Origin: an uncultured Candidatus Saccharibacteria bacterium
GTDB lineage: Bacteria > Patescibacteriota > Minisyncoccia > Portnoybacterales > UBA2143
Direction of reading: 5' to 3'
DNA: 64,000 nucleotides
NCBI GenBank assembly: GCA_964629675.1
Contig: CAZVUG010000016.1
Span: forward strand, 43 to 64,042
Shown here piece after piece: positions 25,343 through 61,800 of the stretch. Numbering within the stretch: the first letter of the stretch is position 1; each line of letters begins with the position of its first letter. The translations under genes were made by a program, and so were the position numbers. The notes below the pieces were generated by a model. It ran no database searches. It had not been told where the DNA came from and saw only the letters and a list, made by a program, of their open reading frames with translations.

Positions 25343-26689
25343 TTATCTATTTTGAATTAACTGACTAATTTCGTCAGTTTTTTCTTTGCCTATTTTTTCA
25401 TCATCAGCTTCTAGATTAAGCCTGATTAAAGATTCTGTATTAGATGGGCGCAAATTAAACCACCAATTAGCATATTCTATAGTTAATCCATCTAAGTGGG
25501 AAATTTTGCCATCTTGGTATTCTTTTTCTATCTTTTCCAATATTTTCCCTTTATCTTCTACGGAAAAATTAGTTTCTTCAATATTATAATATTTTCTAAA
25601 AGGCTTGATCATCTCTGAGAATTTTTTATCTTGCTTAGAAAAAACAGAGATAATAAACAAAGATGCAATTAAGCCGCTGTCTGCCCTAAAATTATCTCTA
25701 AAATAATAATGTCCGGAATGTTCGCCAGCAAAGAAAGCGTCAGTTTCTTTCATTCTCTTTTTAATAAAAGAATGGCCAACTCTTTCTCTTAAAGGAATAC
25801 CTCCGTAATCTTTAATCGTCTCCGGAACAATGTGGCTGCAAACTGCATTATAAATTATCTTTTGCCCTGATTCTTTTTCTAAAATTTCTTTGGCTATTAA
25901 AGACATAATCAAAGAGCTGCTGATAGTTTGCGCTTTTTCATCTATAAAGAAAACTCTGTCGCCATCTCCATCAAAAGCCATGCCAAAATCAGCTTTTTCC
26001 GATAAAACTTTTTTCTGCAATTCTGCCAGATTCTTCTTCTCAATTGGATTTGCTAGATGATTAGGGAAAGAGCCGTCCAGCTCGAAGTATAAAGGAATAA
26101 TTGTGCAAGGAATTTTTTCAAAAACCAGCGGGATTATTTTACCAGCCATACCATTTCCAGCATCAACAACTATCTTTAATTCTTTCAAATGGGAGATATT
26201 AATAAAAGACAAAGCGTGCTCGACATAATCATTTAAAATGTCTTTTTTAATAATTTTTCCTAATGATTTTTCTCTATTTGCCGAAAGGCAATTATTTGAT
26301 AATTCAGCAATTTCTGGAAGGCCATTTATTTCTCCGACAGGAATAGCATCTTTCTGGCAAATTTTTAATCCATTATATTGAGATTCCAGATGAGAAGCAG
26401 TAATCATTATTCCCGGCAAATTTAATTTACCGGAAGCAAAATATAATGAATCAGAGCTTACTTTTCCAATATCAATTACATCTACACCTTGTTTAATAAT
26501 AGATTCAGACAAAGCTTTGAATAAATCATCTGAAGAAAGACGCATATCCCGGCCAACTAAAATCTGCTTAGCTTTTAGAAAAATCGCCAAGGCGCAACCA
26601 ATTTGCGATATGGCTTCTTCATTAATTTCCCGAGGATAAATTCCTCGGATATCATAAGCTTTAAAGATTTTTTTATTTATTCCCATCAT
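25343..26689 (-). CDS. Phosphomannomutase/phosphoglucomutase family
   Basis: Active-site loop TASHLESQYNG, metal site FDGDGDR and sugar-binding GEHSGH. Confidence 0.88.
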   Translation of the reverse strand: MMGINKKIFKAYDIRGIYPREINEEAISQIGCALAIFLKAKQILVGRDMRLSSDDLFKALSESIIKQGVDVIDIGKVSSDSLYFASGKLNLPGIMITASHLESQYNGLKICQKDAIPVGEINGLPEIAELSNNCLSANREKSLGKIIKKDILNDYVEHALSFINISHLKELKIVVDAGNGMAGKIIPLVFEKIPCTIIPLYFELDGSFPNHLANPIEKKNLAELQKKVLSEKADFGMAFDGDGDRVFFIDEKAQTISSSLIMSLIAKEILEKESGQKIIYNAVCSHIVPETIKDYGGIPLRERVGHSFIKKRMKETDAFFAGEHSGHYYFRDNFRADSGLIASLFIISVFSKQDKKFSEMIKPFRKYYNIEETNFSVEDKGKILEKIEKEYQDGKISHLDGLTIEYANWWFNLRPSNTESLIRLNLEADDEKIGKEKTDEISQLIQNR

Positions 26690-27776
26690 CTTTTAAAATT
26701 CCCCCTCCTAAACAAACATCTTTTTGGTAAAAGACCGCCCATTGGCCAGGAGTAATTGAATATTGCGGTTTGTTAAAAAATAGCTTTCCCCTATTTTGTT
26801 TTTTTTCTATACTTAATTTTGCTAATACTGGTTTCTGGACAAAGCGAGTTTTAACCTGAATTTTCATTGCTTTCTGGGGAAATTTTCCTGAAATAAAATG
26901 GACATCTGATAAAAATGCTTCTTTTGTTGAAAAATCAGCATCATTTTTTTGATTAGTAACTACTAATTGATTCTTTTGGCTATCTTTTTTAACTACTTTC
27001 CACGGACCACCAGAAAGCTTGATCCCCTTTCTCTGCCCCAAAGTATAAAAATGGAGCCCTTGATGCTTTCCCAAGATATTTCCTTGGTTATCAACAATAT
27101 CACCTTCCTTAATCCCTATTTTATTTTCTAAATATGCTTTTAAAGATTTAGCTGAGACAAAACAAAGATCCTGGCTTTGCTTCTTTTTTGTAAAAAAATT
27201 AATTCCGGCCTTCTTGGCTATTTGATAAACTTCTTTTTTAAAGTAATTTCCTAAAGGAAAAATTATTTTCTTCAATTCTTTTTCTTCTAAGAGGCAAAGA
27301 AAATAGCTTTGGTCCTTTTCTTTATCTTTAGCTTTTAATAATTGATATTTCCCGTCTTTAGCTTTTTTTATTCTAGCATAATGCCCTGTGGCAAGATACT
27401 CTGCTTTCATTTTTTTTGCGAATTGGGATAAATGGTTAAATTTCATTAAACGATTGCAGATTATGCAAGGATTAGGAGTTTCATTCTTTTGTAAAGATAA
27501 AAGAAAATATTCCATCACCTTTTTCTTAAAATCTAACTTTTTATCAATAATGTAATGAGGAACTTTGAGCTTTTGGCAAACTTTTTTTGCAATAGCTAAT
27601 GATTCAGCTGAACAGCAAGCATTTTGTTTTAGCTGATTTTTGCTGCTTTTCCAAATATTGTATTTAAAAGAAACTCCAATTGGCTGATATCCTTGTTTTT
27701 TTAAAAGCACGAGAGCTACCGAAGAATCTACTCCGCCAGAAAGGCCAACAACTATTTTCCCCTTATTATTCTTCAT
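26673..27776 (-). CDS. mnmA: tRNA 2-thiouridine(34) synthase MnmA (CxxC 'C-type' variant)
   Basis: PP-loop GLSGGVDSSV, CCS and PNPCIICN Cys motifs, and a C-terminal barrel. Confidence 0.88.
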   Translation of the reverse strand: MKNNKGKIVVGLSGGVDSSVALVLLKKQGYQPIGVSFKYNIWKSSKNQLKQNACCSAESLAIAKKVCQKLKVPHYIIDKKLDFKKKVMEYFLLSLQKNETPNPCIICNRLMKFNHLSQFAKKMKAEYLATGHYARIKKAKDGKYQLLKAKDKEKDQSYFLCLLEEKELKKIIFPLGNYFKKEVYQIAKKAGINFFTKKKQSQDLCFVSAKSLKAYLENKIGIKEGDIVDNQGNILGKHQGLHFYTLGQRKGIKLSGGPWKVVKKDSQKNQLVVTNQKNDADFSTKEAFLSDVHFISGKFPQKAMKIQVKTRFVQKPVLAKLSIEKKQNRGKLFFNKPQYSITPGQWAVFYQKDVCLGGGILKDDGNK

Positions 27777-28050
27777 TTTTTTCGTTGATTCTAATTGCCT
27801 TACCGTGAATTAACGCGTCAGCTATTTTTCTTCTAGCTATGCATAAATTTCTTTGCAAGGTACTTTGAGAAACGCCCATTTTTTTAGCTGCTTCCGTTTG
27901 GCATTGATCTTTTAAATCACAAAGGCGGAGAGTCTCTATTTCATATCTTTCTAAAATTACTTCCTCCAATTCAAAAAGAGGAACCGCCCTTGGTTTAAAA
28001 TAAGTAGCTTTTGGGTCAATTTGAATTAATCTTTTTTTAACTGGCCTCAT
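27766..28050 (-). CDS. DUF134 (UPF0251) family putative DNA-binding protein
   Basis: 94 aa. YFKPRAVP...LE.YEIETLRLCDL...QTEAAKKMGVSQSTLQRNL..ARRKIADALIHGKAIRI is a sigma-70 region-4-like HTH characteristic of DUF134. Confidence 0.8.
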   Translation of the reverse strand: MRPVKKRLIQIDPKATYFKPRAVPLFELEEVILERYEIETLRLCDLKDQCQTEAAKKMGVSQSTLQRNLCIARRKIADALIHGKAIRINEKNEE

Positions 28051-28937
28051 ATTATTTCTTCCCTTAGATTTTGATAAATTTCTGTTAATTCCTTTTTTGC
28101 CTGAAGGTCGGTCTCTAAGATAGGCTTCAGGTTAGCAATAGCCTTAAAAATTCCTTGGTCATAAGAAATCTTTCCTAAGAAAAATTCTTTAAATTCTTTC
28201 TCTATTTGCTGGCTTATTTTAGGATTAATATCCCATTTATTAATAATTGTTTTAAAGGGAATACCGAAATGCTTAATAACTTTTAAAACTTTTTTAAAAT
28301 CAGCTAAACCAGAAGGTGTTGGTTCAGTGACCAGAACTGCTAAATCAACATCTTGAATTGAAGCAATAACCGGACAGCCTGTTCCAGGAGCTGAATCAAT
28401 CAACATTAATTCATAATCTTCATTTTCTTCGGCATATTTCTTAATTTCGCTGACTATTTTCCCCGAACCAGTTTCTCCAACAAAGAGATGTCCAGAAATA
28501 AGAGTAAAATAATTTTGCGAATTAAGATTAACTTTTTTGACTTTTATTTCTCCGTTTTGCACTGGTTTTAACTGGATAGCCTTTTTAGGACAAACTAATT
28601 CGCAAACACCGCAACCCTCACACAAGAAGCGGTTTAATTTAGGTTTGCCATTTTCCATCTTTATTGCTGAAAATTGGCATTTTTGGGCACAAATCCCGCA
28701 GCCATCGCATTTCTGATAATTAATTTCCGGCCGGTAAGAAGTAGTTACCGGAATAGTCTTTTGCCAATTTTCGAATTCGTTCAGCCAGATAGCCAAATTA
28801 GGCGCATCAACATCAGCATCGACAGCTATTATTTTCTTTTCTTGAGCAAATAAAGTAGCTAGAGCAGAGCTTAGCATTGACTTGCCGACGCCGCCTTTTC
28901 CTGAAACAATAGCTAATTTAAAATTTTTTTTTGTCAT
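28047..28937 (-). CDS. MinD/ParA-superfamily P-loop ATPase with inserted 2x[4Fe-4S] ferredoxin domain
   Basis: Deviant Walker A SGKGGVGKS. Two CxxCxxCxxxC(P) motifs (CDGCGICAQKC and CEGCGVCELVCP). Confidence 0.85.
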   Translation of the reverse strand: MTKKNFKLAIVSGKGGVGKSMLSSALATLFAQEKKIIAVDADVDAPNLAIWLNEFENWQKTIPVTTSYRPEINYQKCDGCGICAQKCQFSAIKMENGKPKLNRFLCEGCGVCELVCPKKAIQLKPVQNGEIKVKKVNLNSQNYFTLISGHLFVGETGSGKIVSEIKKYAEENEDYELMLIDSAPGTGCPVIASIQDVDLAVLVTEPTPSGLADFKKVLKVIKHFGIPFKTIINKWDINPKISQQIEKEFKEFFLGKISYDQGIFKAIANLKPILETDLQAKKELTEIYQNLREEII

Positions 28938-29524
28938 AAGACCTCTTTCAATTTATTAAAATCATTTTTCAAAAATTCTTTCATATTTTGATTATAGACT
29001 GCAACAGCTGGATGATAAAAAGGAATAATTTTTATTTTTCCATAATCTGCCTGTGAATCAAAAAATTGGCCATGAATTTTGCTAATTCCTTGGATTTCAT
29101 CCTTTAAATTAAATTTTTCTAAAAGATAAGCGGAAGCATAATTTCCTAAAGCGCCAATTACTTTAGGCTTAATAATATTAATTTGCCTTATTAAATAAGG
29201 AACGCAAGCTTCAATTTCTTCCTGCTGAGGATTACGATTATGAGGCGGCCGGTCTTTTAAAATATTAGTGATATATATTTCCTCTCTTTTAATGCCGGCT
29301 GATTCTAATAATTCATCTAAAACTTTTCCGGCTTGTCCGCAGAAAGGCCGGCCGGTTTTTGATTCGGAAGCACCCGGAGCTTCACCGACCAAAACTATTT
29401 TAGTTTGATGGTTGCCTTCGCCAATAACTGGCAAAATCCTTGTTTTGTATAAAGGACATTTTTGGCAGGCAATTACCTCTTCTTTGATTTTTTTTAGTTT
29501 TGTTTCTATTTCTTTTATTTGCAT
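28934..29524 (-). CDS. Uracil-DNA glycosylase, family 4 (Fe-S type)
   Basis: CQKCPLYKTR...GEGN...VLVGEAPGASE...GRPFCGQAG...HP are motifs of family-4 UDGs. Confidence 0.85.
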   Translation of the reverse strand: MQIKEIETKLKKIKEEVIACQKCPLYKTRILPVIGEGNHQTKIVLVGEAPGASESKTGRPFCGQAGKVLDELLESAGIKREEIYITNILKDRPPHNRNPQQEEIEACVPYLIRQINIIKPKVIGALGNYASAYLLEKFNLKDEIQGISKIHGQFFDSQADYGKIKIIPFYHPAVAVYNQNMKEFLKNDFNKLKEVL

Positions 29525-30285
29525 GATGAGAAGACAAGAGAGATTAAAAAGATCAAAGTAGCTGACAAAATGACCAAAGGACCTGCTGGTAGAGAAAAAG
29601 ATTCAAAAGCAATAATGCCAATAACAGAAGCAAGACTACCAATTAATAAAGCACCATAAGAATATTGGGATAAATTACGGGCGAAATTGCGCGCGGCTGC
29701 CGCTGGCGTAATAACTAAAGCGCCCATCAGGAGAGAACCAGTTACTTTTATTCCCAAAGCAACAACAACAGCAATGCAAGCTAAATAAATAAAATTATAT
29801 TTTTTGACCTTGATGTGCTCTACCTTAGCTAAATTTTCTGAAAGGTTAGCCAAAATTATCTTAGAAAAAATCTTTTTTAAAACCAGCCAAGTTAAAACAC
29901 ATAATATTATTGAAATTAAGGCATCCCAAAATCCGACTTGCGATATATCTCCAATTAAAGCAGTCGAGACTTCTTCTTCTGGCAAGAACAAAAAAGCAAT
30001 AGCTACAGAAGCTGTAAAAACGATGCCAGTTAATGCTTCCATTGGCAATTTTGTTCTCATTTCAAAAAGCCAAATTAAAATAATGCCTAAGATTAAGATT
30101 GGCAGCGCCCCTAGAGAAACATTAAATTCATAAATTAAAGCCAAAGCTACTCCAGGCAAAGCAACATGCCCTAAGGCATCGCCGACTAGCGCCATTCTTT
30201 TAGTTACCATTAGAGATCCTAGATAGCCTGCTAGCCCGCCGACAAAAACACCTATTATTAAACTATATAGAAATTGAACCTCCAT
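29515..30285 (-). CDS. Metal (Zn/Mn/Fe) ABC transporter permease, ABC-3/ZnuB-TroCD family
   Basis: 256 aa, about 8 TM segments, with ABC-3 family-like blocks (VGDALGHVALPGVALA). Confidence 0.8.
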   Translation of the reverse strand: MEVQFLYSLIIGVFVGGLAGYLGSLMVTKRMALVGDALGHVALPGVALALIYEFNVSLGALPILILGIILIWLFEMRTKLPMEALTGIVFTASVAIAFLFLPEEEVSTALIGDISQVGFWDALISIILCVLTWLVLKKIFSKIILANLSENLAKVEHIKVKKYNFIYLACIAVVVALGIKVTGSLLMGALVITPAAAARNFARNLSQYSYGALLIGSLASVIGIIAFESFSLPAGPLVILSATLIFLISLVFSSCK

Positions 30286-30940
30286 AAATTTTAGCTAAAT
30301 TTTTAGGATTAATTACTTTTTCCGGAGAACCAAAAAACAATTTTTCTTTGTTTAAGGCTAAAACTCTATCTGCCTTTTTAACAACTTCTCCTATTTCATG
30401 AGAGACTAGAATAATTGATTGATTCTTTTGCTGCCAAAGCTTAATTAAAGAGTCGTAAATAGTTTCCCGGCCATGAATATCAATACCGACCATCGGCTCG
30501 TCTAAAAGTAAAACATCTGGCTCATCTATTAAAACCCAGGCAATAGTTACTCTTTTTAGCTGCCCTGTAGAAAGGGTGCCTAATCTTTTATTTAAAAATT
30601 TAGTTGTATCTTTTATGCCTATCCAGCCAAGAGCTTCTGCTGCTCTTAATAATTTCTTATCCTTGAATTTGAAAAAATCCTTAACACTTAAAGGCAGATT
30701 CGGAGAAACATCAAAATTTTCAGGAACATAACCAACATGGATATCTTTTTTCCACTGAATTTTTCCTTTAAAGGGATGGAGGTTTAACAAAGTTCTTAAT
30801 AAGACGCTTTTGCCGGCTCCGTTCGGACCTAAGACAACCAGAACTTCTTTGCTTTTTAAATTAAAGCTTAAATTTTCTAGGACTTTTTCTTTGCCTAGCT
30901 CTACATTTAAATTTTCTACTTTAAGAATGCTTTCTGGCAT
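30263..30940 (-). CDS. Metal ABC transporter ATP-binding protein (ZnuC-like)
   Basis: Walker A GPNGAGKS, signature LSTGQ and Walker B LLLDEP. 23-nt overlap with the permease gene. Confidence 0.85.
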   Translation of the reverse strand: MPESILKVENLNVELGKEKVLENLSFNLKSKEVLVVLGPNGAGKSVLLRTLLNLHPFKGKIQWKKDIHVGYVPENFDVSPNLPLSVKDFFKFKDKKLLRAAEALGWIGIKDTTKFLNKRLGTLSTGQLKRVTIAWVLIDEPDVLLLDEPMVGIDIHGRETIYDSLIKLWQQKNQSIILVSHEIGEVVKKADRVLALNKEKLFFGSPEKVINPKNLAKIYGGSISI

Positions 30941-30942
30941 AA

Positions 30943-31869
30943 TTATTTATTTTGCTTTAAATAAGCAAAAATACTGCTAGCAGCAATAGCTCCTTCGGCG
31001 CAAGCAGTAATAATTTGGCGGAAATTATTAGATCCGTTAGTAATATCGCCAGCTGCCCAAACACCCTTAACATTAGTTGAGCCGCCGCTATCAATTTTAA
31101 TAAATCCATTCTGGTCTTTATCCAGATTCAATTCTTCGGCCATTTCTAAATGAGGAGCAATCCCCATTTCAACAAAAATACCATCTAAAGCTAAATTATT
31201 TTTTCCTTGGTGTTCTTTTTCTAAAACTGCCTCTTCCAAAAAATCATTTCCTTTTAATTCAGTAATTTTGTTTTCTAAAACTAATTCAATTTTAGGATTA
31301 CTTTTTACTTTTTTCTGCCAAATTTTATCTGCTTTCAATTCGCTTTCATGAATAAGATAAACTTTTTTAGCTATTTCTGCTAAATAATCGGCTGTAGTTG
31401 CTGCTGCACTGCTTCCGCCAATAACAGCAACAATTTTATCAGTAAATAATTTACCGTCACAGGTAGCGCAATAAGAAACGCCTTTGCCAAAAAATTCATT
31501 TTCGCCTGAGATGTTAAGTTTTTGCCTTTCGGCCCCCATAGCCAAAAGAATATTTTCGCTAAAATATTTTTGGCCAGTTATTGTTTCTAGCAAGAAACTA
31601 TCTTCTTGCCGGGAAATTTTAACTACTTTATCTGAAATTATTTCCGCGCCTAGCTTGCTAGCTGAATTTTCCATCTTTTTTACTAAATCTTCTCCTTTAA
31701 TTTCCTCTTCACTAGGGAAATTGCCAACTTTATGCGCTTCTGCCATTCGACCGTCAATTAAAGAGCCAATCATCAAATGATTTAAGCCGAATCGCGAAAG
31801 ATAAATTGAAGCCGTCATGCCTGCTGGGCCGCTACCAACAATTATTAAATTATATTTTTTTTCATTCAT
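30943..31869 (-). CDS. trxB: Low-Mr thioredoxin reductase homologue lacking the NADPH-binding HRRxxxR motif
   Basis: FAD motif VGSGPAGMTA and redox CATC (SYCATCDG). Where E. coli TrxR has VHLIHRRDGFRA, this protein reads VYLIHESELKA. Confidence 0.8.
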   Translation of the reverse strand: MNEKKYNLIIVGSGPAGMTASIYLSRFGLNHLMIGSLIDGRMAEAHKVGNFPSEEEIKGEDLVKKMENSASKLGAEIISDKVVKISRQEDSFLLETITGQKYFSENILLAMGAERQKLNISGENEFFGKGVSYCATCDGKLFTDKIVAVIGGSSAAATTADYLAEIAKKVYLIHESELKADKIWQKKVKSNPKIELVLENKITELKGNDFLEEAVLEKEHQGKNNLALDGIFVEMGIAPHLEMAEELNLDKDQNGFIKIDSGGSTNVKGVWAAGDITNGSNNFRQIITACAEGAIAASSIFAYLKQNK

Positions 31870-32914
31870 TATTTTTAAACAAAAAGCTTTTAATAGTCTT
31901 AATTAAGACTATTAAGCTAATTGCTATTAAGATTAAATAAACGCCAAAACCGCAATAGGCTAAAAAAGACTGATTAGTCAGCAGAGACTGATTTAAAGAA
32001 GCAATTGAAACAGAAGCTGTTGGAAAAACAAAAGCCCACCAGCTAATTCCATAAGGAAGCTCTATTTTTTTAAAATAATAGCCAGTTAATAAGATAAGTA
32101 AGATTAGCAACCAAAGGCCTATGCCAATTAACATTGGATTAATTAAAATTGGCAAAGCCATTAAAGATTCTTTAAATTCAGGCAAATATTTGCCAGTCTT
32201 TTCAGCAAATAAAGATAGAGACAAAGACATTAAAGAGAAAGGAACCAAAATAATCCAAAAGGAAGGAAAGATTTTTGGATTTAATTTCTCAAAGAAAAAA
32301 ACTTTGCTGAATAAAGATATGGCTATTAGCAAAAAAACAAAAGCGCCCGCACCAAAGAAAAAATAATTAATAAACAATATTATTTTAGCAACAGGAAGAT
32401 TAGAAATAAAAAAATTAATTATTTCCAATCCGGCAATTGGCGTCAGTAAAGCAGCTACTGGCGGCACTAACCACCCCCCATTAATAAAATTAATATTCAT
32501 TTCCTCGTTAATAATCAATGAATAAACAGCTAAGGTCAGTAGGATAAATTCAAAGATAGCGCCAACAAACCAAAAGATAATTGAAATATCTTGATAATTC
32601 CAAAGAGACAAATTAAAGCCCAGCTTAGAAAAGTTGATAGCAATCATGATCATTGCTGCCGGCATTAATGAATGAAAGCCAGCCATTATTGGGCTTTTTA
32701 ACTCTTCGGCCAAAAGATCAGCGTAAACTACAGCTTTTAAAATCCAGAAAATAAACAAGAAAACAAATAAAAACAAATTAAAGTAAACTAATAAGGAAGT
32801 AAAAGGAATTAGCCAAGGAAAATTAAAAATCTTTGCGACTAAGAAAGAAGCAATAGCTATCCCACCAAAACCTAATACTGTTGCAAACCAAATTGGACTA
32901 AATTTTTTAATCAT
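31862..32914 (-). CDS. TDT-family (TehA/Mae1/Ssu1-like) anion transporter
   Basis: 350 aa, about 10 TM segments. N-terminal PIWFATVLGFGGIA resembles TehA/C4-dicarboxylate-malate transporter family openings. Overlaps trxB and trx by 8 nt each. Confidence 0.6.
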   Translation of the reverse strand: MIKKFSPIWFATVLGFGGIAIASFLVAKIFNFPWLIPFTSLLVYFNLFLFVFLFIFWILKAVVYADLLAEELKSPIMAGFHSLMPAAMIMIAINFSKLGFNLSLWNYQDISIIFWFVGAIFEFILLTLAVYSLIINEEMNINFINGGWLVPPVAALLTPIAGLEIINFFISNLPVAKIILFINYFFFGAGAFVFLLIAISLFSKVFFFEKLNPKIFPSFWIILVPFSLMSLSLSLFAEKTGKYLPEFKESLMALPILINPMLIGIGLWLLILLILLTGYYFKKIELPYGISWWAFVFPTASVSIASLNQSLLTNQSFLAYCGFGVYLILIAISLIVLIKTIKSFLFKNNE

Positions 32915-33251
32915 TTTTTAATTGAAGCTCTGTTTCTAATTCCCCCTTAAACATTTCAAAAGGCCTTAGCCCGATAAATTCTTGAGCTACTTGGCCATTC
33001 TTAAAAAGCTTTATATTAGGAATGCTTCTAATATCATATTGAATAGCTAAATTTTGATTCTCTGGAATTTCTGTGTTTAACTTGCAAATTTTTAATTGTC
33101 CGTCAAACTCTTCCGAAAGACTTTCTAAAACTGGCGCCATCATCAAGCAAGGCTGACACCAAGGAGCCCAGAAATCTACTAAAGTAGGAATTTCTGATTC
33201 CAAAACTTCTTCTTGAAAATTTTCACTTGTAACTTCGATTATTTTTGACAT
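32907..33251 (-). CDS. trxA: Thioredoxin with WCQPC active site
   Basis: 114 aa. VDFWAPWCQPCLMMAP in a thioredoxin fold (the canonical motif is WCGPC). Confidence 0.88.
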   Translation of the reverse strand: MSKIIEVTSENFQEEVLESEIPTLVDFWAPWCQPCLMMAPVLESLSEEFDGQLKICKLNTEIPENQNLAIQYDIRSIPNIKLFKNGQVAQEFIGLRPFEMFKGELETELQLKND

Positions 33252-33268
33252 ATTTTTATTTTATTTAA

Positions 33269-33652
33269 TTATTTTCTGCCACCGCCACCCATTCCTTGAC
33301 CTCGGCCATCTCGAGGGCCTAGTCCCATGCCTCTGCCTTGGCCAGCGCCCATTCCCCGACCTCCTCTTAAACCTCGACCAAATTCTATTCCTTGGTTAGA
33401 TCTTTCCGGCTCAAATGAAGATTTATCCGCTGGCTCTTCATTTTTTTCCGCAGAAGATTCTTTCTGGCTTTCTTCCTCAGAAATTTTTTCTATAGCCCCC
33501 ATTGGACAAACGCTTTCTCCGCCGCATTCTGCCAGTTTCTCCTGACTTATTATGTCAACTTTTCCGTTAGAGTTGAACTCAGTCGCCCCCGGGCAAGACT
33601 GCAGACAAACGCCACAACCAATGCATTTCTCTTGATTTACCTTATATTTCAT
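33269..33652 (-). CDS. [4Fe-4S] ferredoxin with acidic linker and C-terminal Gly/Arg-rich tail
   Basis: CIGCGVCLQSCP plus a distal CP (SVCPMGAI), then EEESQKESSAEKNEE, then GRGLRGGRGMGAGQGRGMGLGPRDGRGQGMGGGGRK. Confidence 0.8.
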   Translation of the reverse strand: MKYKVNQEKCIGCGVCLQSCPGATEFNSNGKVDIISQEKLAECGGESVCPMGAIEKISEEESQKESSAEKNEEPADKSSFEPERSNQGIEFGRGLRGGRGMGAGQGRGMGLGPRDGRGQGMGGGGRK

Positions 33653-33741
33653 AACTTTTAAGATAAAAACCTTTATATTTGCGACAGCAAATTAATTTAC
33701 TATCGTAAAAATAAAAGCTATTTTTTATTAATTTAAATTTA

Positions 33742-35088
33742 TTACATTATTTTTCCCAAAGCTGACTGTGCTGCTGTAATTAACGGGTAGACAGTTGGCG
33801 CAGAAGTTAGCAGCGGATGCGTTGAAATTTGCAAAGAATCAAAATCATATAAAGTTGCCCGCCGCTGGATAGCCAAAGAAATTACATTGACTAATTCGCC
33901 AGCACTTTTTCCGCCAATTACTTGGCCGCCCAAGAGATTACCAGAGTCTTTAGAAAAAATAAGCTTAACTTTAATCTTTCTGGTATGAGGTAAGGTTCCT
34001 GGATGATGATCAGGAGCTTCACTCTCACCAACAATTGTTTCAAATCCTTCGTTTCGAGCTGTTTCCTCGCTGAAGCCAACACCGCCAAACATTGAATCTT
34101 TCAGATATGTTGAAAAGGCACCTAAAGTCCCTTTGTTTTCCCTGAAAATTTCTAATTGATAAAGGCTAGCTCCGGCTATTCTGGCTTCTGAGCAAGCTGT
34201 TGAAGCAAGCATCACTAGAATGGATTTACTAGTAAAGAAATCTTTCGTTTGCGCGCAATCACCGACAGCAAAAACGTCATCATAATTAGTTCTCATATAT
34301 TCATCAACTAGGATATTACCGTTTTCTTCTATCCTAATCCCGGCTTCTTTAGCTAATTCTATATTAGCTTTTGCTCCAATTGATAGAATAACTAAATCAG
34401 TTTCAATCTCTTTCTTGTCATCCAAAATTACTTTTTCAACTTTATCATTACCAGCAATTTCTTCAATCATTCTGCCAGTATGAATTTTAACTCCTTTTTC
34501 TTCTAGTTTCTTTTGTGCCTCCAAAGCAAATTCTTTATCAAAATTTGCCATTAAGCAAGTATCCATTTTTTCGACAATGTTTATTTCTTTGCCTTCTAGG
34601 CTACTGATTTCTTCTGCCATTTCTACGCCAATAAAACCGCCGCCAATAATAACTATTTTCTTAGCTTCCATGACTGCTTCTCTCATTTTTTTCAAATAAT
34701 CAACTTCTTTTTTAACTAGCCAAACTCCTTCTTTCTCAATTCCTTTAATAGGAATTTTAGTTGAGCTAGAACCAGTTGCTAAAACAAGCTTTTCGTATTC
34801 AATCTCTCCTTTTTTGGCCAAGGAAACTTTTTTGATTTTAGGATCAATTTTTTTAGCTTCATCTATAATTAAATCAATTTTATTCTTTGTTAATGGATCA
34901 TCTGGCGTAATATTTTTATCTACTGAATCTAAGCGATGAAAAATATATGGAATACCGCAAGGAACAACTGATTTTTGCTCTTTACGGACCAAGGTAATTT
35001 TTTTATCCGGGTTATGTTTTCTGGCAGTAATTGCCGTCACTATGCCGGCTGGACCTCCGCCAATAATTAAAATGTCTGTTTTGTTCAT
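33742..35088 (-). CDS. FAD-dependent pyridine nucleotide-disulfide oxidoreductase (NADH oxidase/CoA-disulfide reductase family)
   Basis: GGGPAG FAD motif, single redox Cys in KSVVPCGIPY, a second Rossmann motif IIGGGFIGVE and AVGDCA. Confidence 0.8.
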   Translation of the reverse strand: MNKTDILIIGGGPAGIVTAITARKHNPDKKITLVRKEQKSVVPCGIPYIFHRLDSVDKNITPDDPLTKNKIDLIIDEAKKIDPKIKKVSLAKKGEIEYEKLVLATGSSSTKIPIKGIEKEGVWLVKKEVDYLKKMREAVMEAKKIVIIGGGFIGVEMAEEISSLEGKEINIVEKMDTCLMANFDKEFALEAQKKLEEKGVKIHTGRMIEEIAGNDKVEKVILDDKKEIETDLVILSIGAKANIELAKEAGIRIEENGNILVDEYMRTNYDDVFAVGDCAQTKDFFTSKSILVMLASTACSEARIAGASLYQLEIFRENKGTLGAFSTYLKDSMFGGVGFSEETARNEGFETIVGESEAPDHHPGTLPHTRKIKVKLIFSKDSGNLLGGQVIGGKSAGELVNVISLAIQRRATLYDFDSLQISTHPLLTSAPTVYPLITAAQSALGKIM

Positions 35089-35915
35089 AAAATTGTCTCC
35101 TTAATATTTAATAATTTACTTTGCGAATAAGCTTTAACAATTTCCTTAGAATAAGGAAGTTCTTTTTCTATTTCTACCTTGTATTTTTTAGCTGTTTCTT
35201 CAACCATCTTTTTATCGCCTAGATTAGCTTGATTAAGAATTATTTTAACCGGCAGTTTCAACTGCTGACATAAATCTAAAATCAAACCTAGATCAACTGA
35301 CCCCATTGGCGTTGGCTCAGTTACTGCGTAAACTGAATCAACTCCCAAAAGAGCGTTGATAACTGGACAATGAGTCCCAGCCGCTGTATCTAAGATAACA
35401 AGATCTGCCTTATTTTTATCAGCAAATTCTAAAGCAAATTCTTTAACTTGGTTTACAATTGGCCCAGTTTCTTCTAATCCTGGCTTAGCCAAACCAGTAA
35501 TTAGATGAAAGCCTTTTTCAATTTGATTAAGATATATTTCCCCGACTTCTTTCTTCTCCGGCTTGATTGCTCCGTAAGGGCAAACATTCCAGCAAGCGCC
35601 ACAGCCTGAGCATAGATCCATAACAAAAATTGGATATTGTCCAGGAGCTTGGAAAATGGCATTTTCCCGGCAAGCTTTGACGCAAATTCCGCATTTTTGG
35701 CATTTGCTTTTATCTAATTTCGGGAAAGAAGCTGTTGCTTTCGCTACTGGTTTTTGCAACTTTTTGCCGATTAATAAATAATCATTTGGGCATTCTACAT
35801 CGCAGTCGACAAGAACAACCTTTTTATCTTTTTTAAAATAATTATTAGCTAGAATAACTGAGACAGTGGATTTCCCTGTCCCGCCTTTCCCTCCACTAAT
35901 GGCTATTTTCTCCAT
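35085..35915 (-). CDS. MinD/ParA-superfamily ATPase with inserted 2x[4Fe-4S] ferredoxin domain (second copy)
   Basis: Walker A GGKGGTGKS; CQKCGICVKAC and CSGCGACWNVCP. Confidence 0.85.
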   Translation of the reverse strand: MEKIAISGGKGGTGKSTVSVILANNYFKKDKKVVLVDCDVECPNDYLLIGKKLQKPVAKATASFPKLDKSKCQKCGICVKACRENAIFQAPGQYPIFVMDLCSGCGACWNVCPYGAIKPEKKEVGEIYLNQIEKGFHLITGLAKPGLEETGPIVNQVKEFALEFADKNKADLVILDTAAGTHCPVINALLGVDSVYAVTEPTPMGSVDLGLILDLCQQLKLPVKIILNQANLGDKKMVEETAKKYKVEIEKELPYSKEIVKAYSQSKLLNIKETIL

Positions 35916-35916
35916 A

Positions 35917-37155
35917 TTAAATCTTCTCCCTAGTAGGCTCTTTTAATGGCTTTAGCTTATTTTTTTGAAATTGGGCAATAATATTTCTAATATCTCCATC
36001 TTCTCCCCAATAGATATCAACAATGTTGTCCCTTAAGGCATGCAGAGAAATCGGCCCCATTTCTTTGCTAATTACTGAATCAATTTTTTCATTAATGACT
36101 AATTGAACTGTGCTCAAACCAGCCCTTATTTTTTTCCCTTGATAAATATTATTTTTAACATAATATCCCTGAATCCCCTGGCTGTCTAAATTAATAAAAA
36201 TAAAGTTCTTAGCTCGGCCAAAATGCTCAGAGATTATTGAATCAAGGCCTTGATCTTCTTCAATTGGTATGCAAATCTTTTGCTTGTGGACCATAAAAGG
36301 CAAAACAGTAACTGTAAAAGTATCAATTGCCTTTATTTTTCTTTTAATTTCCTTTTCAATATTTTCCGAGATTTCATAAGCTCTTTTAACATCTATGCTC
36401 TTGCCAATTTTAATTTTGACTTCGCCAAAAATAAGGGGGCCTGATTTTCTTAATCTTAAATTTTCAAATTCGCGGACGCCAGAAATATTATTTAAAATTT
36501 TCTCAATTTTTTCCTCATTTTCCTTTGACGGCGAGACATCCATCAAGGCAAAAATAGAATCTTTAGCTGAACTTAAACCAGCTTCAAAAATAAACAAAGA
36601 GATCAAAATTCCCATGACTCCTTCTAAATAAGAAATTTCCAGCCAAGCAGCAAATAAGCCGATTAAGACTAAGGAAGAAGAAAGCAAATGTAAACGAGAT
36701 TCCCGGCCGTCAGCAACTAAACTTTGCGAATTGATCTTTTTGCCTATTTTAACTTCGTAAGTGCCAATTGAAAACATGACAATGGCGTCTAAAATAGCTG
36801 CGCCAATTGCCACTAAGGGAATATTTAATTCTGGCTTAACAAATAATTCAGAAAAGCTTTCTCTAATAATTGTTACGCCGGCAAAAATAATTAAAACTGA
36901 AATCAAAAAAGCAGTTAGATTTTCTGCTTTGTAATAACCATAGGAAAATTTTTTAGTCGGCCTTTTCTGGGAAATTTTTAAGCCGAACCAAGCAGCAAAA
37001 CTAGAAAGAGAATCAGCTGCGCTATGAATAGCATCACCCATCAGAACAACACTTCCGGAAATAAGGCCAATTATTCCCTTAAGGACCGCTAAACTTATTG
37101 TTGCCAAGGCCGAAATAATAGTAGTTCTTTGGCCTTTTTTAAAAATTTCCGCCAT
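35917..37155 (-). CDS. Cation diffusion facilitator (CDF) transporter fused to a C-terminal NifX/NifB-like (Nitro_FeMo-Co) domain
   Basis: TM2 metal site GDAIHSAADSLSS, six TM segments and a cytoplasmic CDF domain. The last roughly 110 aa (KICIPIEEDQGLDSIISEHFGRAKNFIFINL...) match the NifX-like fold pattern of the next gene. Confidence 0.75.
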   Translation of the reverse strand: MAEIFKKGQRTTIISALATISLAVLKGIIGLISGSVVLMGDAIHSAADSLSSFAAWFGLKISQKRPTKKFSYGYYKAENLTAFLISVLIIFAGVTIIRESFSELFVKPELNIPLVAIGAAILDAIVMFSIGTYEVKIGKKINSQSLVADGRESRLHLLSSSLVLIGLFAAWLEISYLEGVMGILISLFIFEAGLSSAKDSIFALMDVSPSKENEEKIEKILNNISGVREFENLRLRKSGPLIFGEVKIKIGKSIDVKRAYEISENIEKEIKRKIKAIDTFTVTVLPFMVHKQKICIPIEEDQGLDSIISEHFGRAKNFIFINLDSQGIQGYYVKNNIYQGKKIRAGLSTVQLVINEKIDSVISKEMGPISLHALRDNIVDIYWGEDGDIRNIIAQFQKNKLKPLKEPTREKI

Positions 37156-37528
37156 ATCTTCTTCCCATGCCTAAATGGGATGGGCCAGTTGGCCCTTTAA
37201 TTTCTTTTAATTCTCCCTGACTATATTTTTTTAAAGCTTCTCTGGCAGAAATGCCAGCAACTCCAGTAAATATTTTTAGACCGCTGCTACTTAAAACAGC
37301 AAAAGCTCGCGGGCCAACATTGCCCGTAATAATAACTTTTGCTCCTGAAGAAGCAACTGCCTGAGCAGCCGTAATACCGGCTCCGCCCATTGCTTCTATT
37401 CCTGGATTATTGATCACTTCTACTTTTTTCCCTTCTTGATCAGTGACTAAAAAATAATTAGCCCTACCAAAACGAGGGTCTATCGGCGAATCTAGATTAG
37501 GAGAACTAACGCTTAGACAAATCTTCAT
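37139..37528 (-). CDS. NifX/NifB-like (dinitrogenase FeMo-cofactor-binding family) protein with Gly/Pro/Arg tail
   Basis: MKICLSVSS..LDSPIDPRFGRANYFLV...GGAGITAAQAV...GAKVIITGNVGPRAF. C-terminal tail GPTGPSHLGMGRRYGG. Confidence 0.8.
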   Translation of the reverse strand: MKICLSVSSPNLDSPIDPRFGRANYFLVTDQEGKKVEVINNPGIEAMGGAGITAAQAVASSGAKVIITGNVGPRAFAVLSSSGLKIFTGVAGISAREALKKYSQGELKEIKGPTGPSHLGMGRRYGGNF

Positions 37529-37530
37529 AA

Positions 37531-37800
37531 TTAATTGTTTTTATTTAGCTCCTCAAGGCGATTTTTAATTCCTTCCGTATCTTTTTTTAAAAGATTCAAT
37601 TCTTCATTAAGAATTTTCTTTTCTTCTTCTTTGGCTGGCTGAGATTCTTCAGAATAATAACGTCTGAATCCATAGCCTCTACCAAATCCTAAACCGCGGC
37701 CATAGCCGTAACGAGAAGTATAACCTGGAAAGCAGTTACCCATTCCCCGTCCAGTTCTTGGACCTAGTCCTTGAGGGCCTCTTCCATTTAAAGCAGGCAT
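37531..37800 (-). CDS. DUF5320-family protein
   Basis: N-terminus MPALNGRGPQGLGPRTGRGMGNCFPG..., followed by a Gly/Arg/Tyr-rich stretch and a C-terminal coiled coil. This is the architecture typical of DUF5320. Confidence 0.75.
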   Translation of the reverse strand: MPALNGRGPQGLGPRTGRGMGNCFPGYTSRYGYGRGLGFGRGYGFRRYYSEESQPAKEEEKKILNEELNLLKKDTEGIKNRLEELNKNN

Positions 37801-37823: not shown

Positions 37824-37888
37824 CCTCATAATATTATTATATCAGATAACTACGACTTTTAACACTGTTAATAGTTATCTATTATGAG
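37824..37888. promoter_or_regulatory. Nested palindromes overlapping the putative promoter of the DUF5320 operon
   Basis: Three nested inverted repeats: CTCATAAT (37824-31) / ATTATGAG (37881-88); AGATAACTA (37844-52) / TAGTTATCT (37872-80); inner TTAACA-C-TGTTAA (37859-71). Minus-strand TGTTAA, 17 nt, TATAAT (37841-36) would make the inner palindrome overlap the -35 element. Confidence 0.4.
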
Positions 37889-37911
37889 TATATACCCATA
37901 ACAAACCATTG

Positions 37912-38946
37912 TCAAGCTCTATTCCACTCTTTCAGATTATCCATTAATTTCTGCTCGAGCAGAATTTCTTCCAGTCTTTCCTTGTATTCAGGCTTTTTAA
38001 TTTGGTCCGTTACTTTTTGGTATCCTTGATATTGTTTTAAAAGCTGATCTCGCTTTTCATCAATTTCTTTATCGTTTACTTTAATCTCCCCTTTTTTAAG
38101 AATTTCCCTGAGAATTAAAGAGATTTTCACTCTTTTTTCAGCAACTGGGGAAAATTCTTTTTTAAGATCTGCTTCACTTTTTTTAGCATTTTGCAAGTAA
38201 TCCTCAAATTTTCCTCCTTGAGAAACAATATTTTTCTTAAGATTAGCCAGCATTGATTCTATCTCTTGATTAACAATTGCTTCCGGGATTTCTCCAAACT
38301 GTGAATTCTTTATTATTTTTTCCAAAATATCTGATTCAAATTTTTCTTTGGCTGCCTGCTTTTTTTGTTCTAAAAGATATTTTTCTAAATCTTCTTCTAA
38401 TTTTTTCAGGCTTTCGAAATTCAATCCTTTAGCAAAATTATCATCTATTGGCTTTTTCTCTTCTTCTTTCTTTTCTTCATCTTTTTTCCCATCAACTTTC
38501 ATCTTTTTCAGAAATTCCAATTGTTTTTTGATTTCTTCTTTATTAACTTCTGCTTTATCTTCTTTGACTTTTAGATTCTTGTATTCGCCTAAAGTTATTT
38601 CCGGCAAAATGTTTAAAATAATCTTATATTCTAAATCATTGCCAGAAGCTATTTTAGTTATCTCAACTTCCGGCTGACCAAGAAAAGAGGCTTTTGCTTT
38701 TTTTAAAACCTCGGGAAGATTGCTTCGGATAGCTAAAGAAGCAGCTCTTTCTAAAACAGCCATCTCACCGACTCTTTGTTTAACTACTTCAAAAGATGCT
38801 TTCCCTTGGCGAAATCCCTTTATTTTAATTTCTTGAGATATTTCCGCAGCACCTTTATCAAAATATTTTTTAAAATCAGCAAAAGGCAAAACAACTGCTA
38901 AAGCGATTCTCCCCTTTCCCAATTCTTTCTTCTCTATTTTTATCAT
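37912..38946 (-). CDS. tig: Trigger factor lacking the PPIase domain
   Basis: N-terminal ribosome-binding signature GFRQGKAS and a C-terminal TF arm domain. The central FKBP domain is replaced by a Lys/Glu-rich linker (344 aa). Confidence 0.75.
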   Translation of the reverse strand: MIKIEKKELGKGRIALAVVLPFADFKKYFDKGAAEISQEIKIKGFRQGKASFEVVKQRVGEMAVLERAASLAIRSNLPEVLKKAKASFLGQPEVEITKIASGNDLEYKIILNILPEITLGEYKNLKVKEDKAEVNKEEIKKQLEFLKKMKVDGKKDEEKKEEEKKPIDDNFAKGLNFESLKKLEEDLEKYLLEQKKQAAKEKFESDILEKIIKNSQFGEIPEAIVNQEIESMLANLKKNIVSQGGKFEDYLQNAKKSEADLKKEFSPVAEKRVKISLILREILKKGEIKVNDKEIDEKRDQLLKQYQGYQKVTDQIKKPEYKERLEEILLEQKLMDNLKEWNRA

Positions 38947-61610: not shown

Positions 61611-61800
61611 CAAAAAATCCCTCTTTGAGGGAATAAAAAAATATTAATACTCTCAAGCCTCGAAGAGATAATACTTAAAAGAAAATAATTAAGCGACCTG
61701 GCTTATTTCTTGCCCTTAGGCAAAAACATCACAGTTGCGGGTCAGCCGAGGATTCTCACCTCAGTTCGTTAATCATTATCTGCTTATTTTAAAATTACTT
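61611..61800 (-). promoter_or_regulatory. Cobalamin-riboswitch-like leader with terminator expression platform
   Basis: Minus-strand core GAACUGAGGUGAGAAUCCUCGGCUGACCCGCAACUGUGA closely parallels the conserved cobalamin aptamer core (GGUGnGAAUCC...GCnGnCCCGCnACUGUGA). Further elements: a closing helix AUUAACGA/UCGCUUAAU, a small hairpin UUGCC-UAAG-GGCAA, an AAGCCAGG B12-box-like element, and terminator UCCCUC-AAA-GAGGGA plus U6 (61632-61612). Confidence 0.6.

Follow-up and report, generated by a model that had tools for sequence, protein, structure and literature searches.

Fourteen consecutive minus-strand open reading frames (ORFs) fill about 10 kb (27766-37800) of a 64-kb stretch of contig CAZVUG010000016.1, from an uncultured patescibacterium; the whole stretch is termed the window. 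Within this block lies a conserved core of genes encoding DUF5320, a NifX-like protein, a cation diffusion facilitator transporter fused to a NifX-like domain (CDF::NifX), two MinD/ferredoxin ATPases and the helix-turn-helix (HTH) protein DUF134, and this core recurs in Patescibacteria and DPANN archaea. A 20-bp palindrome, TTATGGGTATATACTCATAA, covers the -10 box of the promoter ahead of the first gene, and DUF134 probably acts at that site. By analogy, the core is best read as the Patescibacteria/DPANN version of the orange-protein (ORP) and IssA-type machinery of anaerobes. A broader reading, in which the block is one DUF134-gated unit for handling iron-sulfur (Fe-S) or metal-sulfide species together with metal flux, has about an even chance of being right.

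According to this broader reading, one main transcript would run from the promoter (37915-37887) at least as far as DUF134 (27766), possibly past the genes for MnmA and phosphoglucomutase (PGM). DUF134, through an HTH resembling sigma-70 region 4, would bind the palindrome over the -10 box and repress its own unit, presumably in response to a sensed signal. The NifX-like domains would hold labile inorganic Fe-S or metal-sulfide species non-covalently, aided by cationic Gly/Arg segments on three proteins (at the N-terminus of DUF5320 and in the tails of NifX and the ferredoxin), and the two Orp3/Orp4-like MinD ATPases, each carrying a pair of [4Fe-4S] motifs, would provide for transfer that depends on ATP and electrons. 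CDF::NifX would couple a transmembrane flux of divalent metal, of presumptive direction, to the cytoplasmic Fe-S/metal-sulfide pool. Eight cargo genes would ride on the same promoter; they encode a low-potential ferredoxin, a thioredoxin, a thioredoxin reductase (TrxR) homologue, a flavoprotein, a ZnuBC-like importer, an anion transporter and a family-4 uracil-DNA glycosylase (UDG4).

The nucleus of this gene set is already known from Desulfovibrio, and a preliminary description of the block, which knew of no demonstrated function for the set, overlooked the literature on the ORP complex and IssA. New, as far as the literature searched goes, are the CDF::NifX family and its spread across two domains of life, the architecture of the cargo slot, the operator together with its ties to DUF134 and DUF5320, and a conserved leader motif. 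Searches of the literature on DUF134, DUF5320, UPF0251 or NifX in Patescibacteria and DPANN returned incidental mentions only, and neither this cluster nor the CDF::NifX fusion was found described. Patescibacteria and DPANN account for a substantial part of microbial diversity, and there is scant knowledge of the way they deal with metals and cofactors. Of the genomic markers for an anaerobic lifestyle, NifX-like domains rank with the strongest (PMC13386939), and the orange-protein system is still without an agreed function. The block offers several handles: a precise operator with a candidate regulator for the widespread DUF134 and DUF5320 families, a transporter fused to a NifX domain that points to a membrane step, and modular Gly/Arg tails, a hint that anionic iron sulfide may be bound in the manner of IssA by many organisms other than hyperthermophiles. 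In any metagenome, the operator can also serve as an easy sequence marker by which to locate the regulon.

Core genes and their ORP and IssA counterparts

The CDF::NifX gene encodes a single 412-residue protein. Its AlphaFold2 model (pLDDT 85.9) consists of six transmembrane helices, a C-terminal domain and a NifX fold, with YiiP and ZnT as best Foldseek matches. As in YiiP/FieF, MamB/MamM and ZnT, a six-helix membrane domain is combined with an alpha-beta cytoplasmic domain, and a four-residue transport site lies on transmembrane helices 2 and 5. Residues H44/D48/E152/H156 of this site A align to D45/D49/H153/D157 of YiiP, which gives the fusion an H-D/E-H site, unlike the D-D/H-D site of YiiP and the H-D/H-D site of ZnT8. 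Across 75 homologues, H44, E152 and H156 do not vary, and conservation of D48 is 90% or more. Because the transport-site residues are conserved, the fusion is probably an active transporter with an unusual site, as judged from alignment and model. The protein scores 204 bits against TIGR01297 (cutoff 82); unlike other CDF transporters, it misses every equivalog cutoff, and MamB, MamM, MntE and FieF are its nearest NCBIfam families.

A protein search with the fusion returned 884 relatives, with source names such as Wolfebacteria, Portnoybacteria, Patescibacteria and Aenigmatarchaeota; the best 120 clusters (90% identity) all carry the same three Pfam domains. The names of the closest homologues, together with the housekeeping genes of the window, point to a patescibacterium of Parcubacteria/Paceibacteria type as its probable source. 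Relatives occur in 150 species genomes (one genome per species), and the best 80 of these were used for a census of gene neighbourhoods, in which ORFs were called and matched to the window proteins and to each other (related loci are labelled L003 and so on). All 80 fusions are full length; a Nealsonbacteria genome among the 80 is complete, and DPANN archaea are represented by Aenigmatarchaeota, Woesearchaeota and Iainarchaeum.

The most constant partners of the fusion are NifX-like genes, found in 65 of the 80 loci and directly upstream in 56, and MinD/ferredoxin ATPase genes, of which 70 loci have at least one and 54 at least two, with one directly downstream of the fusion in 52. In 14 loci the two ATPase genes adjoin each other, and in 40 they stand 1-9 genes apart. 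DUF134 (32/80) and DUF5320 (30/80) are undercounted because many contigs are short. The order NifX - CDF::NifX - MinD ... MinD - DUF134 is retained across the 80 genomes, and the set of DUF5320, NifX-like, MinD-Fer4 and DUF134 genes noted in the preliminary description is borne out as a genuine conserved unit.

DUF5320 proteins share an N-terminal MPxxxGxGPxGxGPxTGRGxGxC motif, a cationic segment rich in Gly, Arg and aromatic residues, and a coiled coil; Cys23 is invariant in the alignment, and GWGRGWGRG-type repeats lie between motif and coiled coil. Residues 1-50 of the window protein are 30% Gly and 18% aromatic, with a pI of 10.9. A family of small Cys4 zinc-ribbon proteins (GFGLGPxGxCxCPxCG..PHQxGxPCY..CPxCG), which has no Pfam model and is absent from the window, carries a Gly/Arg-rich N-terminus with a weak DUF5320-like motif. 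The Cys4 module is free-standing between DUF5320 and NifX in L003, L007, L009, L011-L014, L016-L019, L023-L026, L034, L035 and others. In L048 it forms part of a fusion with NifX, and seven DPANN loci (L036, L038, L046, L059, L075, L076, L079) have it attached to the C-terminal end of DUF134. L064, L066 and L070 encode NifX joined to a coiled coil like that of DUF5320. A NifX::DUF5320 fusion, which would have equated the DUF5320 N-terminus with an IssA tail, does not occur among the best 120 of more than 7800 DUF5320 matches, which carry only PF17253. Such shuffling of Cys4, NifX, coiled coil and Gly/Arg tails appears to tie the parts of the unit together.

The closest characterised counterpart is the ORP complex of D. 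vulgaris, which contains Orp3 and Orp4 (MinD-like, two [4Fe-4S] motifs each), the orange protein Orp8, the Mrp::NifX protein Orp9/MrpORP and the small Orp5 (PMC6345978). The complex and orp operons of strain Hildenborough also include Orp7, with OrpR as regulator, and MrpORP has a CXXC motif for a bridging cluster. In vitro, MrpORP binds Fe-S clusters and hands them to Orp3 and Orp4 (PMC6345978). The window encodes a single-domain NifX-like protein of 129 residues whose nearest solved structures, by phmmer against the PDB, are MTH1175 (1EO1, 1.4e-22) and the D. gigas ORP (2WFB, 1.6e-22, spanning residues 2-113). Two paralogous MinD-like ATPases carry two [4Fe-4S] motifs each, as in Orp3/Orp4 (PMC6345978). 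Both systems also have another NifX-like domain as part of a fusion protein, a restriction to anaerobes and dedicated transcriptional control. ATPase A carries a deviant Walker A motif, GKGGTGKS.

However, the two systems differ in several respects. The fusion partner of NifX in the window is a CDF membrane transporter rather than an Mrp/NBP35 ATPase, and every block protein scores only 26-53 bits against the MrpORP (Mrp/NBP35::NifX) NCBIfam equivalog, whose cutoff is 450. The window genes all read in one direction as a single unit, with a promoter of sigma-70 type and a proposed operator for DUF134, whereas the orp genes form two divergent sigma-54 operons with OrpR and IHF; by Pfam, no enhancer-binding protein or sigma-54-type gene is present in the block. 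Furthermore, the window unit has DUF5320, its ATPase genes are split by an eight-gene cargo island, and units of this type occur in Patescibacteria and DPANN.

The ORP proteins have been called 'putatively involved in cell division', and MrpORP is located at the cell pole (PMC6345978; PMC3897727). A role of the core in division or positioning, as first proposed for the Desulfovibrio ORP system from its MinD-like ATPases and the morphology defects of regulator mutants, would suit the MinD/ParA class of the window ATPases. Such a role is nevertheless barely credible for the loci considered here: no division genes are linked in the approximately 200 loci examined, the partners are metal, thiol and Fe-S proteins, and the later ORP literature has shifted towards Fe-S maturation.

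IssA of Pyrococcus furiosus, a second counterpart, combines a NifX-like domain with a cationic, Gly/aromatic-rich tail and binds thioferrate (PMC5524996). The tail is unstructured, about 70 residues long, with a pI of about 10.7, and the same study mentions an uncharacterised mesophilic 'IssX' clade with glycine-rich tails (PMC5524996). The window NifX protein has a NifX/IPR003731 globular domain, as IssA does (PMC5524996), followed by a short cationic glycine-rich tail, and is nearest to MTH1175, the structure on which IssA was modelled. Its tail is about 20-22 residues long and 27% Gly, with a pI of 10.3; orthologues in related loci have Gly/Arg-rich tails of 20-60 residues, such as GRGPGSGRGPGSGRG and GFGRGLGRGAGRG. 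The N-terminal segments of DUF5320 proteins show the Gly/Arg/Trp/Tyr repeat character of the IssA tail. Unlike in IssA, the NifX tail in the window is only about 20 residues long, and tail-like chemistry is split over DUF5320, ferredoxin and NifX, whose Gly/Arg segments have pI values of 10.3-12. Moreover, IssA has not been described with a CDF fusion or with DUF134. Binding of thioferrate-like polymers by these Gly/Arg segments is doubtful.

SufC-SufB-like pairs lie beside or inside the cluster in four related loci: L011 (7298-8302), L023, L058 and L080. The L011-type pair consists of a SufC-like ABC ATPase and a SufB/D-core protein (PF01458), and in L023 the pair stands between the two MinD/ferredoxin genes. 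Taken by analogy with the carrier role of MrpORP (PMC6345978), these neighbours would strengthen a link to Fe-S biogenesis. The Fe-S/metal trafficking interpretation of the preliminary description is upheld to that extent; of the cargo on which it also relied, part recurs and part is rare or absent in other loci. Within the 64-kb window itself there are no SUF, ISC or NIF genes, and tblastn of the window gave no match to SufB-like, CPHC-membrane, CMD, ZIP, metallo-beta-lactamase, LigD phosphoesterase, 2-oxoacid:ferredoxin oxidoreductase, radical-SAM, glutamate dehydrogenase, NrdD, rubrerythrin or Cys4 proteins.

Promoter, proposed operator and leader

The preliminary description missed the regulatory architecture of the block, a palindromic operator at the 5ʹ end paired with a DUF134 gene at the 3ʹ end. 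Directly upstream of DUF5320 lies TTGACA-17-TATACT, the top promoter-like site (11/12) in a 16-kb scan and the only strong promoter. The palindrome over its -10 box has a single match in the 64-kb window at up to two mismatches (chance expectation, 0.09), so that there is no second operator at the 89-nt gap inside the block or elsewhere in the window at that threshold. The 10 kb that separate the operator from the DUF134 gene span the whole block, an arrangement that argues for one regulatory unit.

DUF134 is the only protein of DNA-binding type in the gene set. On superposition, the HTH core of its AlphaFold2 model (pLDDT 87.7) matches the DNA-binding domains of GerE, DeoR and sigma-70 region 4 at 0.7-0.9 Å, and the Pfam entry for the family notes a weak likeness to sigma-70 region 4. 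Because it co-occurs with the site, has a sigma-4-like HTH and is the sole DNA-binding-type protein, DUF134 is the candidate binder of the palindrome. Since the palindrome covers the -10 box, binding would probably repress.

The 80 fusion-anchored loci hold 32 palindrome sites in 1.16 Mb, 30 of which lie directly before the first cluster gene, and such sites occur in bacterial and archaeal loci alike. In archaeal loci, TTATGAATATATATTCATAA directly follows a TTTAAATA TATA box. Among fusion loci with enough flanking sequence, the palindrome is present in all 24 with a type-1 DUF134 and in 6 of 20 without a detectable DUF134 (p = 3e-7, uncorrected for phylogeny).

The association is also seen when gene content is set aside. 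Metagenome contigs were searched for the bare motif TTATGRRTATATAYYCATAA, and on 97 of the 120 contigs so anchored, a gene of a core family (DUF5320, DUF134, NifX-like, Cys4 or CDF::NifX) starts within 450 nt and reads away from the site. The adjoining genes are mostly DUF5320 and DUF134; DUF5320 is the first gene after the palindrome in 50 of 86 motif-anchored units. Seven of the other 23 contigs have a core gene within 6 kb, and in many of the last 16 the site lies at a contig end. The consensus of 84 oriented metagenome sites, ttgaca-N8-gTTATGggTATATAtTCATAATA, has the same layout as the window promoter. The commonest arrangement is palindrome, DUF5320, DUF134, then transporters or NifX/MinD genes.

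These downstream genes bear on the main rival explanation, a regulon for homeostasis of a metal ion (Zn, Fe or Mn) rather than for Fe-S trafficking. There, DUF134, with DUF5320 as metal sensor or chaperone, would control importers (ZnuBC-like ABC here, ZIP elsewhere) and a CDF exporter; NifX would sense or buffer metal, and the remaining genes would be hitch-hikers. In the 86 motif-anchored units, the genes after DUF5320-DUF134 are mostly for membrane proteins (CPHC protein 13, YibE/F 7, ABC ATPase 6, ZIP 5, ABC-3 3), and ZIP and ABC-3 genes occur in 10 and 9 of the 80 fusion loci, respectively. The CDF domain, nearest to MamB, MamM, MntE and FieF, has a conserved metal site, and DUF5320 has an invariant Cys in a conserved motif. 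Metal homeostasis is nonetheless unlikely as the function of the whole: the most constant fusion partners are NifX-like and MinD/ferredoxin genes, whose characterised homologues bind Fe-S or Mo-Cu-S clusters rather than free ions (PMC6345978, PMC5524996), SufBC-like genes are linked in four loci, and importers and exporter under one operator would be an odd design for a single ion.

A subgroup of DPANN loci has a DUF134 of an MPRWRW subtype and carries another palindrome, TGCACATAAT..ATTATGTGCA, beside the TATA box. The subgroup comprises L048, L049, L055, L063, L064, L066 and L070, although the palindrome was not seen in L064; DUF134 is transcribed divergently, and the DUF5320 proteins have Trp-rich N-termini. 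The pairing of another DUF134 subtype with another palindrome counts in favour of control by DUF134.

Past the palindrome, the leader of bacterial loci contains an 8-nt motif, AAAGGTCG, at a distance of 3-20 nt (53 distinct instances; loci include L005, L082, L085, L087, L094, L101, L110, L117, L126, L139, L140 and L187). In the window, the corresponding motif AAAAGTCG is enclosed by a hairpin with arms AGATAACTA and TAGTTATCT. Since a MAFFT alignment put the 5ʹ arms of the hairpins out of register, helices were assessed by a partner-swap permutation: the motif lies within a helix of at least 6 bp in 24 of the 53 instances, against 10.0 +/- 2.4 in partner-swapped controls. The sequence of the stems varies by locus while complementarity is kept (25 different helices). 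An Rfam scan of the whole window at gathering thresholds placed no family in or before the block and returned only tRNAs and a distant adenosylcobalamin (AdoCbl) riboswitch.

A more specific proposal can be made only tentatively: DUF134 and DUF5320 might form a regulator/sensor pair of Patescibacteria and DPANN that works on a TTATG-N10-CATAA operator, placed over the -10 box in bacteria and just after the TATA box in archaea, and that governs a split-IssA regulon for Fe-S or metal-sulfide species with CDF::NifX as its membrane link.

Cargo slot and probable transcription unit

The 14 genes lie exactly where the preliminary description had placed them in the ORF list, and Pfam gives a match for every family it named among the 14 proteins. 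In the census, the 14 genes of its 'super-operon' do not form a conserved unit; the segment between the two ATPase genes is a slot for lineage-variable cargo, and the 14-gene order is specific to the window lineage. Even the nearest relatives, L003-L005 (fusions 68-73% identical), have different and shorter cargo; with its eight genes, the window slot is one of the larger ones. Between the ATPase genes of the 80 loci are found UDG4 (22), a CPHC membrane protein (17), thioredoxin (9), CMD/AhpD-like (9), ABC ATPase (7), ABC-3 permease (6) and metallo-beta-lactamase (6) genes, and occasionally genes for ZIP, 2-oxoacid:ferredoxin oxidoreductase, LigD phosphoesterase, a DUF123 nuclease, glutamate dehydrogenase or a SufC-SufB-like pair. 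The CDF fusion, thioredoxin, ferredoxin, the metal ABC pair and, strikingly, UDG4 recur with the core in other genomes; the flavoprotein and TrxR homologue, grouped as one family, are found in about 5 of 80 loci and the TDT transporter, which is window-specific cargo, in none of the 80.

Several sequence features named in the preliminary description are present as stated, among them the WCQPC thioredoxin and the Gly/Arg tail of the ferredoxin (46% Gly, pI 12). Thioredoxin is encoded in 22 of the 80 loci and ferredoxin orthologues in about 11, with the tail in L029, L013 and L010 and not in the others; the two genes are adjacent in seven related loci. The flavoprotein, lineage-specific cargo that the preliminary description called single-Cys, has Cys44, the N-terminal Cys of the CoADR/Nox class, and no CxxxxC motif; its top NCBIfam match is CoA-disulfide reductase, at 247 bits and below the cutoff of 458.

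The TrxR homologue was rightly described as without HRR. Aligned with 3F8P, HRRD is replaced by HESE (HESELKA), and GxGxxA is also gone, replaced by GGSSAA. GxGxxA and HRRxxxR are the NAD(P)H motifs that serve as criteria for NADPH-dependent thioredoxin reductases (NTR; PMC10880999), and by these criteria the protein classes as a non-NTR TrxB on its sequence. Like ferredoxin-dependent flavin thioredoxin reductases (FFTR) and other non-NTR TrxBs, it has the low-molecular-weight TrxR fold and CATC, lacks both motifs, and is encoded close to thioredoxin and ferredoxin. Unlike FFTR, it is nearer to archaeal TrxB-3 (3F8P, 2e-66) than to the clostridial FFTR structures (6GNA, 1e-32). Lacking the NAD(P)H motifs, it is probably ferredoxin-linked, and with ferredoxin and thioredoxin encoded two genes away, a ferredoxin-to-thioredoxin electron chain through the TrxR homologue is a reasonable inference from sequence.

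The preliminary description also called the glycosylase an Fe-S type UDG. Its HMM match places it in family 4, and it keeps three canonical cluster Cys, but compared with 4ZBX and 1L9G the cluster-ligand Cys of KCRPP is Asp (KDRPP) and an extra Cys occurs in GRPFCG. The same Asp is found in 10 of 30 cluster-linked UDGs with a readable motif (L002, L014, L017, L027, L029, L031, L033, L035, L040, L062). These substitutions suggest a shifted or altered [4Fe-4S] ligand set. UDG4 lies on the fusion strand in 33 of the 80 loci and is the commonest cargo gene.

Neither the window, among its 48 annotated ORFs, nor the surroundings of the ABC pair in related loci include a ZnuA-type binding protein. 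An unrelated 89-residue ORF precedes the ABC pair in three related loci. The CPHC protein (about 377 residues; L016:6906-8039 and 35 other loci), which is not in the window and has no Pfam match, is one of the proteins most often encoded next to the cluster or next to a DUF5320-DUF134 pair. It has a signal peptide, its thioredoxin-like domain bears the CPHC motif, and its membrane domain is polytopic and contains conserved Cys; from these motifs alone it may be a CcdA-like transmembrane conduit for thiol electrons.

Much of this cargo would also suit a regulon for repair after redox or oxygen stress, switched by redox state like the Desulfovibrio orp genes through OrpR and comprising thiol repair (thioredoxin, TrxR homologue, CoADR/Nox flavoprotein), cluster repair (NifX, MinD-Fer4) and DNA repair (UDG4). 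Expression of the orp operons is confined to low redox potential (PMC8359166), and ferredoxin-dependent TrxB genes are stress-response genes in Clostridia (PMC10880999). Related slots carry CMD/AhpD-like, rubrerythrin-like, thioredoxin, LigD-phosphoesterase and DUF123/GIY-YIG nuclease genes, and UDG4 leads the cargo list. However, the stress genes belong to the variable and not the conserved part, the prominent metal-transporter cargo would be unexplained, and the window DUF134 shows no evident redox-sensing cofactor site; this explanation is quite unlikely.

The block is also distinguished by its packing. Junction spacings in the 5ʹ to 3ʹ direction are +2, -17, +1, -4, +89, +17, -8, -8, +2, -23, -10, -4 and -4 nt. 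The preliminary description's overlaps of 4-23 nt thus apply to 8 of the 13 junctions, with three others nearly abutting, and the only sizeable gap is the 89 nt at 33653-33741 that it had singled out, with a further 17-nt gap between ferredoxin and thioredoxin. Of the 13 junctions in the block, 11 have spacings of 2 nt or less; in the rest of the window, 15 of the 48 junctions between same-strand genes do (Fisher p = 0.001). The minus strand holds 63 of the 73 window genes, and the co-directional run that includes the block extends over 22 genes (25343-45864); it is the tight packing and not the run itself that is remarkable. The block is flanked upstream by trigger factor and H+-pyrophosphatase and downstream by MnmA and PGM (Pfam). 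As the packing continues past DUF134 through MnmA (the CxxC type, NPCIIC, as described earlier) and PGM, which overlap their preceding genes by 11 and 17 nt, to 25343, spacing sets no 3ʹ boundary for the transcript, and both genes may be co-transcribed with the block. The DUF134-MnmA pair is retained in L003-L005. Recent horizontal acquisition of the block was considered and rejected because its GC content (0.34-0.36) matches that of the window.

Such a strand-biased, streamlined genome could also pack genes together with no shared function, so that only the ORP-like core would be functional as a set and the cargo would be expressed independently. The strand bias and long co-directional run, the tight junctions that reach the housekeeping genes for MnmA and PGM, promoter-like sites inside the block, and cargo that differs greatly by genome, including glutamate dehydrogenase, metallo-beta-lactamase and 2-oxoacid:ferredoxin oxidoreductase, all accord with compaction. 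Junctions are significantly tighter in the block than outside it, though, and the cargo is always on the same strand, bracketed by the operator and 5ʹ core genes on one side and MinD-B and DUF134 on the other. Furthermore, cargo is enriched for metal, thiol and Fe-S themes, and UDG4 is kept in bacterial and archaeal versions at varying positions. Compaction alone is very unlikely.

Several observations weigh against the reading of the block as one DUF134-gated unit for Fe-S/metal-sulfide handling. Regarding the regulator, DUF5320 tracks the palindrome as closely as DUF134 and could be the binder or a co-factor instead, the co-occurrence statistics carry no phylogeny correction, and the window DUF134 is without the Cys4 module, so that no sensing site is evident. 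Regarding the transcript, promoter-like sites within the block (such as 31878-31849 and 29018-28991 in the 16-kb scan) and the 89-nt gap may leave room for internal transcripts. Regarding function, the ORP complex is described as unclear in function by its own authors (PMC8359166), the window NifX tail is short (about 20 residues versus 70 in IssA), and Gly/Arg-rich segments are also classic nucleic-acid binders (PMC7565180). The cargo slot elsewhere holds unrelated genes (glutamate dehydrogenase, metallo-beta-lactamase, LigD phosphoesterase, 2-oxoacid:ferredoxin oxidoreductase). Finally, the genes downstream of motif-anchored sites are mostly for membrane transporters and a thiol-redox membrane protein, not NifX/MinD, a pattern that suits metal homeostasis at least as much as it does Fe-S trafficking.

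Feature coordinates and minor observations

Table 1. Features of the block, its control region and its downstream flank, in window coordinates
Feature	Coordinates	Strand	Basis
Sigma-70-type promoter	37887-37915	-	TTGACA (37915-37910), 17-nt spacer, TATACT (37892-37887)
20-bp palindrome, candidate DUF134 operator	37882-37901	.	TTATGGGTATATACTCATAA; covers promoter -10 box
Leader hairpin around motif AAAAGTCG (consensus AAAGGTCG)	37844-37880	-	Arms AGATAACTA / TAGTTATCT; fold -9.7 kcal/mol
DUF5320	37531-37800	-	Pfam PF17253, 8e-21
Stand-alone NifX-like protein, orange-protein/MTH1175 type	37139-37528	-	Pfam PF02579, 1e-21
CDF transporter with C-terminal cytoplasmic NifX-like domain	35917-37155	-	Pfam PF01545 + PF16916 + PF02579 (Cation_efflux, ZT_dimer, Nitro_FeMo-Co)
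MinD/ParA-type P-loop ATPase A, inserted 2x[4Fe-4S] ferredoxin domain (Orp3/Orp4-like architecture)	35085-35915	-	Pfam CbiA, ParA, 2xFer4
CoADR/NADH-oxidase-class flavoprotein, one redox Cys (Cys44)	33742-35088	-	Pfam Pyr_redox_2 + Pyr_redox_dim
Single-cluster ferredoxin, acidic linker, 41-residue Gly/Arg tail	33269-33652	-	Pfam Fer4
Thioredoxin, WCQPC active site	32907-33251	-	Pfam 1e-27; TIGR01068 103 bits vs cutoff 96.8
TDT/SLAC1-family anion transporter	31862-32914	-	Pfam PF03595, 1e-40; TIGR00816 159 bits, under cutoff
TrxR homologue, CATC, without both NAD(P)H motifs (non-NTR)	30943-31869	-	Pyr_redox_2; TIGR01292 304 bits vs cutoff 343
ZnuC-like ABC ATPase	30263-30940	-	Pfam ABC_tran; best NCBIfam ZnuC, under cutoff
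ZnuB-like ABC-3 permease	29515-30285	-	Pfam ABC-3; best NCBIfam ZnuB, under cutoff
Family-4 uracil-DNA glycosylase (UDG4)	28934-29524	-	TIGR00758 222 bits vs cutoff 125; Pfam UDG
MinD/ParA-type P-loop ATPase B, inserted 2x[4Fe-4S] domain	28047-28937	-	Pfam CbiA, ParA, 2xFer4
DUF134 HTH protein, candidate regulator	27766-28050	-	Pfam PF02001, 7e-22
MnmA, CxxC type (NPCIIC)	26673-27776	-	NF001138 390 bits vs cutoff 284
Phosphoglucomutase (PGM)	25343-26689	-	Continues tight run after MnmA

Within 25 nt upstream of their starts, CDF::NifX, both MinD ATPases, the flavoprotein reductase and DUF134 have a Shine-Dalgarno-like GGAG or GGGA; none was found in that interval before the thioredoxin, TDT, TrxR homologue, ABC and UDG genes.

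Away from the block, a second PP-loop protein is encoded at 8796-9737 (minus strand), with weak tRNA_Me_trans/ThiI matches and a fused NFACT-R_2 RNA-binding domain. No NCBIfam model matches this protein, which may be a further enzyme of tRNA thiolation. The AdoCbl (cobalamin) riboswitch returned by the Rfam scan lies at 61639-61794 on the minus strand, upstream of small ORFs at 60478-61267, and scores 61.6 bits where the gathering score is 50.

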